27,021 bases of DNA from Candidatus Parcubacteria bacterium (GCA_039795895.1 JBDKKW010000011.1:1-27021); one strand, 5' to 3'; positions 4,001 through 23,381 are shown, counted from the first letter of the stretch. Notes: generated by a model not told the origin, from the sequence alone. Made by a program: numbers and translations.

Positions 4001-4241
4001 TCACTCCAGCTGGACAGGTGACCTGAAGCTTGGAGATTTGGGTAGTTGCTGGTGATTTGACTGATACTGAAAATGCTCCGCCGGAATTTATCTGATCGAC
4101 TGAAGTGGTGACCAAGACCAGTGGATTTGAGATCCCCACCGCTGCCACGGTTGCTGTGTTTCGGAAATGACCCTGACTCAGTCCAAAAGTCATCACCGCA
4201 AACGCAACCAAAAAACTACCTAAAGCCACCTGTTTTAACAT
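1011..4241 (-). CDS. Large secreted Ser/Thr/Gly-rich repeat protein (1076 aa) with N-terminal signal peptide; adhesin-like or pilus-associated
   Basis: Long uninterrupted ORF. N-terminus MLKQVALGSFLVAFAVMTFGLSQG looks like a Sec signal peptide. Internal duplicated modules: DRAGVW..FGPG.GNTG.RP.DWKW appears twice, K.THT.EGG.WSTSESAYYPLV twice, YGQ.E...Y.GG.ITVTF.DG twice. Immediately upstream of the pilin gene with a 9-nt spacer. Confidence 0.6.
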   Translation of the reverse strand: MLKQVALGSFLVAFAVMTFGLSQGHFRNTATVAAVGISNPLVLVTTSVDQINSGGAFSVSVKSPATTQISKLQVTCPAGVTILSLGQDQCGKVQVLNIASSTTYYTAMMSTSSPLSSATFTAEVFSLSADLATVERNVASAYILINPAPVMPPSNNSVSAVLVPNTTDRAGVWSVFGPGRGNTGNRPSDDWKWDVTVSVNSPKTIASIKVTHTKEGGVWSTSESAYYPLVITNTAGQQVNYTYSTSTGMVATSTTKFSVYGQKEQLRYGGGVITVTFTDGTLVSGVISTPAITSVKITHTAEGGIWSTSESAYYPLVVFDATDKKLNTAYSTNLVTLPANAPASAVTATVVPNVDDRAGVWGTFGPGQGNTGLRPATDWKWAVNFYLENGSVVPFTMYGQMERTVYTGGAITVTFADGGVLTATIPAYVPPTITVLSPNGGESFAPGSSVDVQWSSNATSTIPAVGITLVGTAGVTPIRVNLTPGGTPNDGMQTVTIATSTLSGTYKIEVAGTAGGSVSVVDTSDATFSVSVSTPTAPLSLAISMPVSTTTRTILPGTVGFEFAQYIFDARQSGGDIRITSIPLKLTYTGFTGLSLTSCQLFDGVTAVTTGSNIKNPTVPNGGDEVFTFDGTGLIVPKGTIKTISLRCTLSGAVSTGSVAWGLTPNQATYTSATGALSGLVVPETMLASAGQTIFVIAPGSYTVSLNQSLPSSLYHIEKAAAIAVLGAFNFTAGAQEGVMLKQIALKLGSTASSSPSDLVGQQVSLWDGGTQVGIAQFGGANPDYAISTLATPVSIPAGTTKTLLIKGDLTPHDSNTNLYSIPDLGGYGALLSIAYNGAVNGTSGNYAVGQSSGQNISGGTTAVLQSDGFRIFRNVPRFAMVPTAGTLGVNTELYKFTVTNPNTSRDLVLKRVTFSVATSGSAVGRFILLADGAPAGFPVLVHGGVNTEYVTVDFASSSPAKIVSANSTKVYTLVATMLTPYSPAPSQDTISVTLLADRVYPSLSRLMGTVSQIASGVIGLGASASANIIWSPFSTTTPVADTYSESNLDWTNGYGLPGSPGLGQDFPTQVSTRSR
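2970..3745 (-). repeat. Intragenic duplicated coding modules within the large secreted protein, also visible at DNA level
   Basis: Protein residues about 168-423 contain three motif types, each present twice. DNA segments around 3300-3345 and 3555-3600 are recognisably similar (ggagg..tggtctacttc[cg]gaatc.gc.tattacc). Confidence 0.5.
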
Positions 4242-4335
4242 AGATATAAATAAAAATAAGTAATACTTCCCTCATTATGTCATTTATCGACGCAATCAAA
4301 AAATAGTTATCCCCACGAGGTGGTGAGAAAAAGAA

Positions 4336-4368
4336 ACCCCCCGGAAATCGCAAAGCGATTTCCGGGGG
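4336..4368. terminator. Palindromic hairpin (ccccccggaaatcgc aaa gcgatttccgggggg); terminator after rplB and an inverted copy of the 411-441 element
   Basis: Perfect 15-bp stem with a 3-nt loop. Flanked by A-run 4326-4335 and T-rich 4369-4374. Its reverse complement differs from the hairpin at 411-441 by one base in the loop region and shares the flanking 'ttctcac'. Confidence 0.55.
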
Positions 4369-4420
4369 GTTTCTTTTGTCCTCTTTTTAGAAATTATAAT
4401 TTAGGACTTAGAAATTTCTG

Positions 4421-5272
4421 TTATTCACCTTTCTTCTGCTTGCCTACTCGGCGTCGAGAAACAATGAAGACGTTTGAGTATTTCTTTGGAGTACGTGACT
4501 TCTGACCCTTTCCTACCGGCTTGCCCCAACGAGTCTTTGCTCGCTTGGTACCTCGGCCTTGGCGTCCTTCACCTCCTCCGTATGGGTGATCCACAGGGTT
4601 CATTACTGATCCACGCACGGTCGGTCGGATACCGAGCCATCGTGAGCGTCCTGCCTTACCGATCACCACGAGACGATTTTCATCGTTTGAGACGGTACCG
4701 ACAGTTGCCCAACAGGTTTCGGTCACCTTTCGCACTTCTGTTGAAGGCAATTTCAAGTGAGCGTAGCCCGCATCGTGCGCAATCACTTCCACAAAATTCC
4801 CCGCGCCTCGAGCAAGTTTAGCTCCACCAAAAGCCTTGAGCTCGACATTACATACAAAGGTACCTACAGGAATATTTTTGAGTGGAAGTCGGTTGTATGG
4901 CACAACTGGTGCTGATGCAGAGACAACAAAAGTATCACCGACTTTGAGACCCTTTGGAGCCAAGATATATCGCTTTTCACCATCTTTGTAGACCACGAGT
5001 GCGATAAAGCCAGTACGATTTGGATCGTATTCAATCGAAGCTACTTTCGCAGGGATTTCAAACTTATCAAAAAGAAAATCAACATGTCGATAGAGACGCT
5101 TCACACCGCCACCCTTGTGACGAGTGGTGAGGCGACCGTGACCATTGCGACCGACATCGCGCTTGAAGCCTGAAGTCAGCGCCTTGTGCGGATCATTTGT
5201 CGTGATGAAGTCGGCAAATGAGATGGTGGTCATCTGGCGACGTGGATTACTTGTTGGTTTATAGTGTTTCAT
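4421..5272 (-). CDS. rplB: 50S ribosomal protein L2
   Basis: 283-aa translation with hallmark L2 segments (GRNGHGRLTTRHKGGGVKRLYR, VMNPVDHPYGGGEGR). Sits after rplW in conserved order. Confidence 0.93.
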   Translation of the reverse strand: MKHYKPTSNPRRQMTTISFADFITTNDPHKALTSGFKRDVGRNGHGRLTTRHKGGGVKRLYRHVDFLFDKFEIPAKVASIEYDPNRTGFIALVVYKDGEKRYILAPKGLKVGDTFVVSASAPVVPYNRLPLKNIPVGTFVCNVELKAFGGAKLARGAGNFVEVIAHDAGYAHLKLPSTEVRKVTETCWATVGTVSNDENRLVVIGKAGRSRWLGIRPTVRGSVMNPVDHPYGGGEGRQGRGTKRAKTRWGKPVGKGQKSRTPKKYSNVFIVSRRRVGKQKKGE

Positions 5273-5281
5273 GGTCGTAAA

Positions 5282-5689
5282 TTAAATTGCATCAATAGTA
5301 TCCCCTTCTTTGAGGTATACATATGCTTTTTTAACACCAGCAGAGAAGCCGACAATTCCCTTGCGGAACAATTTCTTGCCAGAATTTCGCACGGTTGCGA
5401 TTTTCACTGGAGTCACTTTGTACTGAGCGATGATCGCCTGAGCGATTTGCTTCTTGGTCGCTGATTCAGATACTTCAAAGGTAAAGACTTTCTTTTCTGA
5501 AAGTGCAGCCGCCTTTTCAGTGATGCGTGGACGGAGAATCACATCATTTGCAGGATTAGCTGATGCAGTCGCAGGAGCAGTAGTCTTTTTTGCCACTACT
5601 TTCTTCGCAACCTTGGTTGCCTTCGCTACTACAGGCTTATCAGCCTTTACTTCCTCTGTCTTTTTGGTTTTTGAGCTAAAGATTCCCAT
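5282..5689 (-). CDS. rplW: 50S ribosomal protein L23 with a Lys/Ala-rich N-terminal extension of about 45 aa
   Basis: The C-terminal 90 aa align with L23 (ILRPRITEKAA...KKAYVYLKEGDTID). The N-terminus is rich in KAKKVVAKK repeats. Confidence 0.88.
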   Translation of the reverse strand: MGIFSSKTKKTEEVKADKPVVAKATKVAKKVVAKKTTAPATASANPANDVILRPRITEKAAALSEKKVFTFEVSESATKKQIAQAIIAQYKVTPVKIATVRNSGKKLFRKGIVGFSAGVKKAYVYLKEGDTIDAI

Positions 5690-5695
5690 AGTAGT

Positions 5696-21951: not shown

Positions 21952-22068
21952 ACTGAGTGTTTTTTGAACTAACTGTTCCGTTTCCAATAGTAGCGATTGA
22001 GTGAAAGAAAAGCAAGAAGCTGGATGAAAATAGACAAGTAACCACTCCCCATCGACAACGAGCAATTA

Positions 22069-22097
22069 AGAAAAAGCCCGCTTGTGCGGGCTTTTTT
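22069..22097 (-). terminator. Rho-independent terminator (aaaaagcccgc ttgt gcgggcttttt) about 150 nt after the rpsG stop
   Basis: Perfect 11-bp GC-rich stem followed by a T-run on the minus strand. Separates rpsL-rpsG from the downstream island. Confidence 0.65.
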
Positions 22098-22250
22098 CTA
22101 TTAATCAACAGTAAGCGTGTCGACAAGCTACGAGGATTTTTGAGAAATTTCGAGGCGCCGGCGAGTACCGTGACCAAAATGTATATGAACATACATTGCG
22201 GGAACGGGCGGAGCCGGCAACAAAGAAATTTCTTAAAAAGACCGTAGTGA

Positions 22251-22721
22251 CTACCAGGCGAAGTGAGCAAAGGCCTTGTTCGCCTCCGCCATCTTGTGTG
22301 TGTTCTCACGCTTCTTCACTGCCTCACCTTCATTCTTTGATGCCAAAATAATTTCTTCAGCAAGTCGTTCGTGCATCGGCTTACCCTTCTTTGAGCGAGC
22401 CGCTTCAATAATCCACTTCATCGACATCGCATTTCGGCGATTGGCAGGAACCTCGCGAGGCACCTGGTAGTTGGCACCGCCCACACGTCGTGAACGTACT
22501 TCCATAAGTGGAGCGGTATTCTTGAGTGCGGTATCAAGTACTTCAAGAGGAGTTTCGGTCTTAGTCTTCTCTTTTATGAACTCGAGGGCACCATACACTA
22601 CTTTTCGAGCAGTGTTCTTCTTGCCTTCAAACATCACATAGTTCACCATCTTTGAAACTTTTTCAGAACTGTATACTGAATCAGCGCCAATCGGCTTTCG
22701 AGCTTTAATTTTTCTTCGCAT
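22251..22721 (-). CDS. rpsG: 30S ribosomal protein S7
   Basis: Matches S7 throughout (VNYVMFEGKKNTARKVVYGA...VRSRRVGGANYQVP...MAEANKAFAHFAW). Confidence 0.92.
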   Translation of the reverse strand: MRRKIKARKPIGADSVYSSEKVSKMVNYVMFEGKKNTARKVVYGALEFIKEKTKTETPLEVLDTALKNTAPLMEVRSRRVGGANYQVPREVPANRRNAMSMKWIIEAARSKKGKPMHERLAEEIILASKNEGEAVKKRENTHKMAEANKAFAHFAW

Positions 22722-22810
22722 AGTAGTTTATTTAAAATTTAAAAATGAGTTTTAGACTAAGAGCTTTTTCTGAATCCTTTCTTCCTAAAAGCTAATAGCT
22801 AGAAGCTTCT

Positions 22811-23227
22811 TTAAGCCTTTGCCTTTGGTCGCTTGTTTCCGTACTGACTTCGACCCTTTCGTCGCTTCTCAACCCCTCCGGCATCAAGTACTCCACGGAC
22901 TACGGTGTAGCGGAGACCGACATCCTTTACGCGTCCACCTCGGAGCATTACCACTGAGTGTTCCTGTAGGTTGTGTCCTTCACCTGGGACATAGGCGGTA
23001 ACTTCGATACCATTGGTAAGTCGAACACGAGCAATCTTTCGAATCGCTGAGTTTGGCTTCTTTGGTGTCTTGGTCGTCACCTTAGTACATACCCCACGCT
23101 TGAACGGTGATGGGAAAAATACTGGTCGGTTTTTAATGGTATTGAAACTGCGGGTAAGCGCCACAGATTTCGATTTTCGCGGAGCTGTCTTTCGAGCTCG
23201 CTTCACTAGCTGTCTAATAGTAGGCAT
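22811..23227 (-). CDS. rpsL: 30S ribosomal protein S12
   Basis: Matches S12 ([13 protein letters not shown]...[58 protein letters not shown]). Start at the ATG at 23227; the 10-aa upstream extension is rejected. Confidence 0.92.
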
Positions 23228-23381
23228 TTGTTTGTAATTGGGATGTCCGTCTTTCACCCGTACTTCTTCGGATTACTCGTCCATCCCGTTAAGATAATAA
23301 ATGCTTTTGAAGTATTGAAAGCAGGCGCTACTATACTATAGAGACGAAAGAAACGCAATCAGACAGCGTCAGCAAGACTGA

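Follow-up and report, generated by a model that had tools for sequence, protein, structure and literature searches.

A str/S10 ribosomal gene cluster divided into blocks by accessory genes in a Parcubacteria genome

The str/S10 gene cluster belongs to the most conserved gene neighbourhood in bacteria, and the presence of several kilobases of other genes inside it raises the question of whether a single genome has been invaded or a whole lineage arranges the cluster in this way. The window analyzed here is a whole contig of 27,021 bp from a metagenome-assembled genome (MAG) of a tiny uncultured bacterium, a member of Parcubacteria (Paceibacteria).

Core blocks and islands of the window

Pfam and NCBIfam searches confirm rpsL, rpsG, fusA, tuf, rpsJ, rplC, rplD, rplW, and rplB in the window. 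All are encoded on the minus strand, as are the features located below, and are arranged as rpsL-rpsG, 7.07 kb, fusA, 3.31 kb, tuf-rpsJ, 0.93 kb, rplC-rplD-rplW-rplB, a strong terminator, and a cassette of surface-protein and pilin genes. The first-pass annotation, which reported the canonical order interrupted at four places, is upheld by these gene calls, and its insert sizes (about 7, 3.3, and 0.9 kb) agree with the 7,071, 3,308, and about 930 bp computed with corrected start codons. The four str genes (rpsL, rpsG, fusA, and tuf) keep their order on one strand, with other genes between them and strong hairpin terminators predicted in silico after rpsG and fusA.

The first block (22251-23227) consists of rpsL (22811-23227, starting with MPTIRQL) and rpsG (22251-22721), separated by a hairpin-free spacer of 89 nt. 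The second is formed by fusA alone (13038-15179; 713 aa, starting with MNRDYPL), whose promoter region is conserved between the window and a sister genome. The third (8054-9729) comprises tuf (8536-9729) and rpsJ (8054-8446), also with a hairpin-free 89-nt spacer, and the fourth (4421-7122) rplC-rplD-rplW-rplB, with spacers of 23, 6, and 9 nt. Upstream of rpsL, where rpoBC would be, stands the gene of a large surface protein with a Peptidase_S74 chaperone domain and Ig-like/HYR domains, cut by the contig end (23382-27014); a 59% homolog occupies the same position in the sister contig L084.

Island 1, between rpsG and fusA (15180-22064, about 7.07 kb), encodes an MVP-like protein with MVP_shoulder and Vault_3 domains (18887-21457), two paralogs (18078-18767 and 17169-17942 in gene order; 34% identity to each other, E = 6e-42), a TMBIM/Bax1-I protein (16363-17091), and Ung (15592-16257; family-1 UDG, 324 bits), a content already proposed and now confirmed by Pfam and NCBIfam. 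Two small cassette ORFs, of 108 aa (21625-21951) and 65 aa (15296-15493), are additional to the first-pass annotation.

Island 2, between fusA and tuf (9730-13000, about 3.3 kb), contains an 82-aa ORF with a signal-like N-terminus (12729-12977), a Trypsin_2 protease with a TIG domain and a hydrophobic N-terminus (11064-12722), an 88-aa ORF (10515-10781), and an Asp_protease_2 protein (10117-10518). Of a supposed retropepsin pair within this island, a single member carries the Asp_protease_2 domain. An AT-rich motif (9925-9967) precedes the predicted tuf promoter (TTGACT-16-TGnTACAAT, 9889-9916). The island is compositionally foreign: its low GC (35-39%) and GC3 (22-35%) differ from those of the core genes (44-49% and 39-52%, respectively), whereas islands 1, 3, and 4 show no deviant base composition.

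Island 3 (7132-8053, about 0.93 kb) separates rpsJ from rplC and includes two hairpins (7990-8021 and 7869-7902), a predicted promoter (TTGACA-16-TAAGAT, 7835-7862), a hypothetical ORF of about 166 aa (7297-7797), and a terminator (7265-7290), followed by the rplC promoter and leader, conserved from position 7220. Island 4 (411-4331), cut off by the contig end, occupies 4.4 kb or more downstream of rplB. It encodes a 1,076-aa protein (1011-4241) and a type-IV-pilin-like protein with an N_methyl motif (477-1001); at its end, an unrelated ORF, beginning at 284, is cut by the contig end. The pilin half of its description as an adhesin/pilin cassette is supported, but the 1,076-aa 'adhesin' has no significant Pfam or NCBIfam domain. 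No rpsS was found in the 4.4 kb between rplB and the contig end, and the succession rplB-rpsS-rplV-rpsC is thus not seen in the window. The characterization of the inserted genes as mostly envelope, secreted, or stress-related could be checked in part, six cargo ORFs having no detectable family.

Predicted transcription units

Strong hairpin-plus-T terminators (13 in the window, -13 to -42 kcal/mol) occur at unit borders only. Block 1 is closed by one at 22065-22096 (-18.1 kcal/mol, z = -4.7), fusA by one at 13001-13032, and block 4 by a very strong one, also noticed at first pass, at 4332-4374 (stem of at least 20 bp, -42.2 kcal/mol, z = -9.7), of which a second copy, 83% identical, lies at 411-446. 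Hairpin terminators within island 1 are located at 21587-21616, 18839-18864, 18031-18056, 17113-17141, 16287-16312, 15558-15585, and 15239-15274, and that of island 2 at 10075-10100. In total, 30 terminator-like structures were counted, compared with 18.1 +/- 4.2 in shuffled sequences; the long-stem examples are all intergenic and all on the coding strand. These hairpins would presumably terminate transcription in vivo.

The statement that nearly every gene has its own terminator proved too strong: a hairpin with a T-tract follows 14 of the 21 window genes, that is, every inferred transcription unit, but none lies inside rpsL-rpsG, tuf-rpsJ, rplC-rplD-rplW-rplB, sm82-protease, or retroB-retroA. 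The terminators after rpsG, rpsJ, rplB, and ung are kept in sister genomes. As the rplB terminator is conserved there, the claim that the S10 operon ends after rplB is valid for the transcription unit, but most likely not for the gene cluster, which in sisters resumes with rpsS...rplE 0.65 kb further on. Within the genus, blocks and cargo units alike have predicted promoters and hairpin terminators of their own. A class-wide hairpin-plus-T scan found no enrichment of terminators at the permissive junctions (12-30% of loci, about as many as on the opposite strand), so the division into separate transcription units is supported for this genus only. An Rfam scan (E <= 1) detected neither an L4-responsive S10 leader nor any other curated r-protein leader RNA, the sub-threshold matches falling on terminator hairpins only; such leaders are described in one source as narrowly distributed (PMC3616713).

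Junctions and cargo in related genomes

The comparison covered 80 species loci with the closest EF-G (Paceibacteria); being chosen by EF-G similarity, they represent that part of the class. Gaps larger than 500 bp are present at rpsG-fusA in 22 of 65 loci, at fusA-tuf in 42 of 54, at rpsJ-rplC in 15 of 50, and at rplB-rpsS in 9 of 28, reaching 7.4, 9.3, 4.8, and 1.9 kb, respectively, while many more loci end short of the next marker gene. At the ten remaining junctions, 3 of 349 cases show a gap above 500 bp. In the related loci, rpsL and rpsG lie close together in 65 of 66, tuf and rpsJ in 51 of 52, and the genes of rplC-rplD-rplW-rplB in all but one of 122 cases. As expansion recurs at these four junctions (rpsG-fusA, fusA-tuf, rpsJ-rplC, and rplB-rpsS) while the cargo differs, the breakpoints appear to be old and lineage-wide, and only the cargo young.

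The cargo is highly diverse. The 391 cargo ORFs of the related loci fall into 356 clusters, 327 of them singletons, and the 146 ORFs with Pfam matches represent 62 families, none with more than four members. Any cargo is common to 0-2% of species pairs below 80% EF-G identity and to about 15% at 85-94%. Between rpsJ and rplC, four unrelated genes were found in four genomes whose flanks are 85-92% identical; the same core-gene interval therefore holds different accessory genes in different genomes.

The synteny comparison proposed at first pass gave a mixed answer for the closest relatives. In island 1, sister L084 shares the MVP-like protein (86% identity; S7, 98%), one paralog, and ung with the window but has neither TMBIM nor a second paralog nor either of the small ORFs, whereas sisters whose r-proteins are 94-99.6% identical lack islands 3 and 4 or have other genes in their place (island 4 is absent from L092 and L093). 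In sisters with a 99.6% identical L2, rplB is followed by the terminator, about 0.65 kb, a promoter, and rpsS...rplE, beginning with rpsS-rplV-rpsC. The pilin cassette is therefore specific to the window, and rpsS...rplE of this genome most likely lie beyond the contig end. The window-sister indels of the 108-aa ORF, TMBIM, and the 65-aa ORF each consist of a promoter, an ORF, and a hairpin, and both junctions of each lie inside a terminator T-tract; the window may have gained these units or the sister may have lost them. At either end of the rplC-rplB block, the site patterns switch (39:17 vs 43:148, Fisher p = 3e-10), a mosaic signal drawn from three sequences and including a non-coding leader.

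Probably, the str/S10 supercluster of this lineage is a chain of small, separately transcribed blocks, with inter-block spacers acting as lineage-wide hot spots of fast-turnover accessory genes. Within the blocks [rpsL-rpsG], [fusA], [tuf-rpsJ], [rplC-rplD-rplW-rplB], and, in sisters, [rpsS...rplE], genes 6-90 nt apart would be kept together, while 0 to more than 9 kb of mostly co-oriented, species-specific cargo would be tolerated between them. As every block and cargo unit in the genus seems to be a self-contained cassette of promoter, gene(s), and hairpin terminator, an insertion would leave r-protein co-expression undisturbed, which may account for the permissiveness of these junctions. 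Cargo could be gained, lost, and replaced cassette by cassette, most likely through DNA uptake followed by homologous recombination anchored in the conserved flanking translation genes, or through short-homology recombination in terminator T-tracts. In Patescibacteria, competence and pili are common, and r-protein genes, tuf, and rpsL are over-represented among inferred horizontal gene transfers (HGT) and in genomic islands (PMC12455944). When the r-protein cluster breaks up, the process usually begins with the insertion of a few genes between its operons (PMC8046335).

Selection for co-expression of the cargo, or for read-through from the strongest promoters of the cell, is an unlikely explanation of its placement. 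All window cargo is co-oriented with the r-protein genes, co-oriented ORFs of at least 150 aa prevail in related loci (79 vs 28 opposite; 78% of bases), and the MVP-paralog-ung trio is kept in the sister species; however, every cargo unit comes with its own promoter-like site and is preceded by a strong predicted terminator, the cargo is almost entirely unrelated between species, and co-orientation may reflect replication-strand bias alone.

Slightly less credible is a single recent event, confined to this genome, in which an otherwise canonical operon pair was invaded, as the first-pass description of an unusually invaded neighbourhood implied. In the 80 species loci, no window cargo gene except one ung lies less than 10 kb from fusA, which would fit such an event, as would the foreign composition of island 2 and the difference of islands 3 and 4 from those of the sisters. 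Expansion of the same junctions in a third to three quarters of related species speaks against it, together with the partial sharing of island 1 and the presence in sisters of a terminator and spacer after rplB and rpsJ. The splitting of the cluster at four points is a lineage-wide habit and not a one-off invasion.

Targeting of these sites by dedicated mobile elements (site-specific integrases, transposons, or integron-like machinery) is about equally doubtful. Pfam searches gave no integrase or transposase in the window, no tRNA was found, and no attC-like array was seen, the cassette ends being ordinary terminators; in addition, four separate junctions are involved, and each unit is an ordinary gene cassette under a promoter of its own. 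Relatives' cargo includes two IS200-type transposases, one reverse transcriptase, HepT toxins, and a restriction-modification-like gene. Some cassettes are flanked by hairpin repeats, the duplicated rplB terminator being the sole flanking repeat in the window, and the GCGATTCCNATCGC core occurs three times (0.01 expected), but the repeated hairpins were found in contigs of this organism only.

A chimera joining ribosomal fragments to unrelated DNA is very improbable: although the source is a MAG whose contig ends inside cargo, and a second assembly breaks off at the identical position, Logan contigs L001, L082, and L083 match the window at 100% identity across three junction regions (rpsL...ung, fusA...Asp-protease gene, and rplB...pilin, with L083 confirming island 2 and L082 island 4, and retroA-to-tuf as the sole junction without second-contig coverage), sister contigs from different samples (L084, L091, L092, and L093) have inserts at the same junctions, and the closed 993-kb chromosome L019 has a fusA-tuf gap of 5.9 kb.

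Comparison with known systems

The locus shares with the bacterial str/S10 cluster the relative order rpsL...rplB, continued in sisters by rpsS...rplE, and a common orientation. However, the breaks (rpsG-fusA, fusA-tuf, rpsJ-rplC, and rplB-rpsS) fall inside what are single operons there, while the classical str-S10 border, tuf-rpsJ, is tight. Neither rpoBC upstream of rpsL (in three relatives inspected and the window) nor an Rfam r-protein leader was found here. Small disconnecting insertions are known from other bacteria (Brandis 2021, PMC8046335): bfd-bfr, for example, separates str from S10, and tusDCB separates rpoBC from str. In both cases, a few unrelated genes lie between transcription units that remain intact. 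Those insertions are rare, about 70% of tree branches having none, and the inserted genes then stay conserved (PMC8046335), whereas a large share of the species compared here has inserts at the four junctions, and the cargo has been exchanged even where the flanks of two genomes are 90% identical.

Archaea split the cluster into modules with uL3-uL4-uL23-uL2 separate from uS19-uL22-uS3... and uS10 apart (PMC10833476). The module borders are identical to those of the window and its relatives, where uL3-uL4-uL23-uL2 is a tight block detached from uS10 and uS19...; yet here, in a bacterium, the modules are still linked in bacterial order and merely spaced apart. In archaea, uS10 is linked to the EF-Tu homologue.

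Integron arrays resemble the islands in consisting of compact, co-oriented, mostly single-gene cassettes of unrelated functions that are gained and lost one by one. Unlike integrons, the window has no IntI integrase, and each of its cassettes is served by its own promoter and closed by an ordinary intrinsic terminator. A likeness is also offered by the HGT hot spots flanked by core genes that were reportedly described by Oliveira, Touchon, Cury and Rocha (Nat Commun, 2017): in both, a few fixed intervals are packed with diverse accessory genes, including defence-like and surface genes. In contrast to those hot spots, the window is free of mobile-element genes, and the setting of the intervals is the most conserved of bacterial gene neighbourhoods.

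Gene content and predicted transcription units

All substantial ORFs of the window lie on the minus strand, and their identities and order were checked with Pfam and NCBIfam. First in gene order is a large surface protein (23382-27014, truncated at the contig end) that carries Peptidase_S74 and Ig-like domains, followed by rpsL and rpsG, a 108-aa ORF, an 856-aa MVP-like protein with MVP_shoulder and Vault_3 domains (18887-21457), two paralogs (34% mutual identity, E = 6e-42), a Bax1-I/TMBIM membrane protein, a family 1 uracil-DNA glycosylase (ung, 324 bits), a 65-aa ORF and fusA (start MNRDYPL, corrected to 15179). 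Downstream of fusA are located an 82-aa ORF whose N-terminus is signal-like, a Trypsin_2 protease that also has a TIG domain (the S1 protease), an 88-aa ORF and an Asp_protease_2 protein, then tuf (corrected start 9729) and rpsJ, a hypothetical ORF of ~166 aa, rplC, rplD, rplW and rplB, a 1,076-aa protein with no significant domain and, last, a type-IV-pilin-like protein. With the corrected starts, the inserts measure 7,071 bp at rpsG/fusA (island 1), 3,308 bp at fusA/tuf (island 2) and ~930 bp at rpsJ/rplC (island 3), and the non-ribosomal DNA downstream of rplB extends over at least 4.4 kb (island 4). The first-pass annotation had described a str/S10 cluster interrupted in these four places; as the gene order and sizes agree, its description of the sequence is accurate, and its interpretation is supported in part.

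No tRNA genes were found in the window, and domain searches of it revealed neither an integrase nor a transposase. PADLOC and NCBIfam yielded no convincing defence or family assignment for the accessory genes between the ribosomal blocks (the cargo): the matches reflect generic protease-domain similarity, and for the Asp-protease gene there is no more than a weak candidate. No rpoBC was found upstream of rpsL in the window or in loci L014, L015 and L038. The Peptidase_S74 domain of the upstream surface protein is a phage-tailspike-type chaperone domain; a 59% homolog of the protein, together with a Laminin_G_3 protein, lies 5' of rpsL on a sister-genome contig (L084, 11-1876). The MVP-like family is large in bacteria (2,694 matches at E <= 1e-5 among 8,000 scored candidates, many labelled 'major vault protein' or 'SPFH domain-containing'), and the two domains of the window member are those of the eukaryotic major vault protein. 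Here and at the sister locus, the MVP-like gene is always followed by a 268/280-aa member of the paralog family. Several ribosomal proteins have extensions that are kept in the sisters: S10 (8054-8446, minus strand; 130 aa) has ~30 extra N-terminal residues, L23 (5282-5689, minus strand; 135 aa) a Lys/Ala-rich N-terminal extension of ~45 aa, and L4 (5696-6469, minus strand) reaches 257 aa.

Terminator-like sites number 30 in the window versus 18.1 +/- 4.2 in shuffled sequences. The strong hairpins (stems of 9-20 bp, -13 to -42 kcal/mol, z of -3.3 to -9.7) are all intergenic and all on the coding strand. They are found 3' of rpsG, the 108-aa ORF, the MVP gene, each paralog, TMBIM, ung, the 65-aa ORF, fusA, the Asp-protease gene, rpsJ (two), the hypothetical ORF, rplB and the pilin gene, and none occurs inside rpsL-rpsG, tuf-rpsJ or rplC-rplD-rplW-rplB. 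The 'structured element' previously noted between rpsJ and rplC proved to be the two terminator-type hairpins, with no Rfam match; Rfam detected no r-protein leader or other family anywhere in the window. Many T-tracts lead directly into a -35-like TTGCAA or TTGACT, and tuf has a predicted promoter at 9889-9916 (10/12, extended -10). Further promoters are predicted at 7835-7862 and near 7205. Predicted terminators are kept in the sisters after rpsG, MVP, ung, rpsJ and rplB.

In this genus, an AT-rich motif (TTCATGAATCATAATTCTT..GAATC..) precedes the -35 of r-protein block promoters by 20-30 nt; it is found before tuf in the window (9925-9967, minus strand) and before rplC and rpsS in the sisters (L092 2464-2506; L093 2007-2056 and 5432-5470; L096 2183-2221; L091 about 287). 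It could be a UP-like element or the binding site of a factor that coordinates the individual blocks; a cargo cassette has displaced the rplC copy in the window. The 5' leader of rplC (7132-7220, minus strand) is conserved with sister-genome contig L092 (e.g., CTGCTAATCTACTCCCACTACC and CACGTAAGAGAACCGCCAG), and L093 and L091 carry a longer alternative. This leader, which has no Rfam match, may be an unrecognised r-protein leader.

Contig integrity and the islands of sister genomes

Chimeric assembly is ruled out as the source of the interleaved arrangement. Three Logan contigs of the same organism, produced by an independent assembler (SRR35181295), are 100% identical to the window across rpsL to ung, fusA to the Asp-protease gene and rplB to the pilin gene, and inserts at the same junctions are also present on sister-genome contigs from other samples. 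A second contig supports every junction except the one from the Asp-protease gene to tuf. One of the Logan contigs (L082) ends exactly at window position 1. That both assemblies stop at one and the same base, within cargo or directly behind it, suggests a repeat or strain-variable region there; the position falls just within an unannotated ORF starting at 284. The closest EF-G sequences (62-80% identity) all belong to Paceibacteria-type Patescibacteria (Nomurabacteria, Zambryskibacteria, Kaiserbacteria and similar), and no exact-sequence match to the L2 or EF-G of the window was found (a one-residue difference or different start calls).

The genus is represented in samples SRR15198238-75, ERR14949479 and Hainich H41. 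A sister species (samples SRR15198247-75) shares 97% (S12), 98% (S7) and 86% (MVP) identity with the window. Its order at the first island is rpsL-rpsG-MVP-one paralog-ung-fusA, so the core of island 1 is common to both; the 108-aa ORF, the second paralog, TMBIM and the 65-aa ORF are missing from it. In another Paceibacterota genome, a 61% MVP homolog lies outside the str cluster altogether. This homolog (L089, 10001-21601) is ~5 kb upstream of infA-rpsM-rpsK-rpsD-rpoA-rplQ-rplM-rpsI, again adjoining a ribosomal cluster.

Island 2 is foreign in composition, with a GC content of 35-39% and GC3 of 22-35% versus 44-49% and 39-52% in the core genes. A JGI metagenome scan with the S1 protease returned relatives of only 26-44% identity; neither a close homolog nor a donor or shared context emerged from it. 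At island 3, four genomes with 85-92% nucleotide-identical flanks contain four unrelated genes: the hypothetical ORF in the window, a 227-aa ORF in L092, a 129-aa antisense ORF in L093 and a 532-aa AlbA_2/HATPase_c_4 protein in L091. The last (727-2325) is defence-like and similar to a PADLOC pAgo-associated model. After rplB, genomes with 99.6% identical L2 have a strong hairpin, a 0.64-0.69 kb spacer that contains an 80-aa antisense ORF, then a TTGACA-16-TGnTAAGAT promoter and rpsS-rplV-rpsC-rplP-rpmC-rpsQ-rplN-rplX-rplE. The surface-protein/pilin cassette of island 4 is thus particular to the genome of the window, whose remaining S10/spc genes are most likely situated past the end of the contig.

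Variable junctions and cassette boundaries in related species

The junctions were surveyed in loci of 80 representative species, each extending 10 kb to either side of fusA, using as queries the window proteins and S19 to L24 from L014. Gaps exceeding 500 bp were observed at rpsG/fusA in 22 of 65 loci (maximum 7.4 kb), at fusA/tuf in 42 of 54 (9.3 kb), at rpsJ/rplC in 15 of 50 (4.8 kb) and at rplB/rpsS in 9 of 28 (1.9 kb). A further 16 loci have > 1 kb of sequence after fusA and no tuf, a further 11 have > 1 kb after rplB and no rpsS, and in three loci rpsG is absent within 3.2-10 kb upstream of fusA. The ten remaining junctions (rpsL/rpsG, tuf/rpsJ, rplC/rplD, rplD/rplW, rplW/rplB, rpsS/rplV, rplV/rpsC, rpsC/rplP, rpsQ/rplN and rplN/rplX) together exceed 500 bp in 3 of 349 cases. 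The four interrupted places of the window are thus exactly the four variable junctions across this part of the class; a closed 993-kb chromosome among the loci (L019) has a fusA-to-tuf gap of 5.9 kb. The classical str/S10 border, tuf/rpsJ, is the one never opened. The transcription units inferred from terminators coincide with the blocks delimited by these gaps. A simple class-wide scan revealed no enrichment of canonical terminators at the permissive junctions, so the terminator/unit layer of the model applies to the genus alone. The description that suits the locus best is a ribosomal supercluster of modular build, shared across the lineage, whose blocks are separated by hypervariable islands.

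The cargo turns over rapidly. The 391 gap ORFs of >= 70 aa in the 80 loci form 356 similarity clusters, of which 327 are singletons, and the 146 larger ORFs with Pfam matches hit 62 families, each represented by at most four of them. The matches include peptidoglycan-binding domains, DUF3298, diacylglycerol kinase, subtilases and pilins, as well as IS200 transposase, HepT, reverse transcriptase and nucleotide-biosynthesis enzymes. Any cargo ORF is common to 0-2% of species pairs below 80% EF-G identity and to ~15% at 85-94%. Most cargo, roughly three quarters, runs in the same direction as the r-protein genes (79 versus 28 ORFs of >= 150 aa). Defence-like cargo is also present after rplB in L063 (18888-22102), where the translations suggest an 841-aa methyltransferase-like ORF with a divergent neighbour ORF.

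Compared with L084, each window-only segment consists of a predicted promoter, an ORF and its own hairpin, with both junctions in the T-tract after a terminator stem, reflecting either gain here or loss in L084. At the TMBIM locus, the sister reads ...GCGGTTTT/CTTTTTGTG...ATG(ung) and the window ...GCGGTTTT/TTTATATTCTTGACT...TMBIM...CTACGGGGTTTT/CTTTTTGTG...ATG(ung), the slash marking the junction; the 65-aa cassette before the fusA promoter follows the same pattern. A 48-nt terminator/promoter module (hairpin and TTGCAA) occurs after ung (15541-15588) and after one paralog (18013-18060) with 90% identity, and its core, GCGATTCCNATCGC, has three copies versus 0.01 expected (the third at 16327-16340). 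The rplB terminator (4338-4373) recurs after the pilin gene (411-446, 83% identity), and the surface-protein/pilin cassette is therefore bracketed by the same terminator. Among the loci compared, the module and the terminator copy were found only in the contigs of this organism; a widespread miniature mobile element is therefore unsupported.

In a three-genome comparison, the site pattern dominant in the rplC-rplB block unites the two sisters. At both ends of the block, beside the cargo junctions, it flips to unite the window with L092 (39:17 vs 43:148, p = 3e-10), and a weaker flip is seen at the 3' end of tuf. Such flips are what would be expected if homologous recombination swapped the cargo, with tracts that extend into the conserved flanks. 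They fit a published account of Patescibacteria in which r-protein genes, tuf and rpsL are over-represented among HGT calls and in genomic islands, and genes for competence and pili are widespread (PMC12455944). Possible, although in our judgement rather doubtful, is a dedicated integrase-free cassette exchange system in the inter-block spacers of Paceibacteria. Promoter-gene-terminator cassettes would then be swapped at terminator T-tracts or via the ultra-conserved flanking translation genes, and the r-protein cluster would be the chief place in these reduced genomes where surface, secreted and defence genes of single strains can safely reside. If true, such exchange would account for the frequency with which HGT calls and genomic islands in Patescibacteria include r-protein genes, tuf and rpsL.

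Implications and comparison with known systems

The best-conserved bacterial gene neighbourhood keeps its order here, yet is porous at a few fixed points. Pipelines that rely on a single contig for the 16 syntenic r-protein markers will meet split or truncated sets (this contig holds S10, L3, L4 and L2 only), r-protein regions will be marked by HGT detectors and by island callers that use composition, and assembly breaks tend to fall in variable cargo. The spacers also constitute a natural experiment on accessory-gene turnover in uncultivated reduced-genome symbionts.

In archaea, the uL3-uL4-uL23-uL2 cluster stands apart from uS10 and from the uS19 cluster (PMC10833476), i.e., with the same borders, rpsJ/rplC and rplB/rpsS, as here. 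This agreement between porous points and archaeal module borders hints at which r-protein genes truly need co-expression. Insertions of a few genes between operons of the ribosomal cluster are rare, and 65% of rearrangements leave operons intact; in E. coli relatives, bfd-bfr is inserted at the str/S10 border (PMC8046335). The islands represent the same kind of event, but they occupy positions that are intra-operonic in model organisms, return at the same four junctions throughout a lineage, have their cargo replaced even between near-identical flanks and consist of cassettes with their own predicted promoter and terminator. In the literature library searched, no description of this architecture was found for CPR/Patescibacteria, which does not by itself establish novelty. 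The islands also resemble the core-flanked hot spots of horizontal gene transfer and, superficially, integron arrays, but the window shows no recombinase, and its cassettes end in ordinary predicted terminators and not in evident attC sites.
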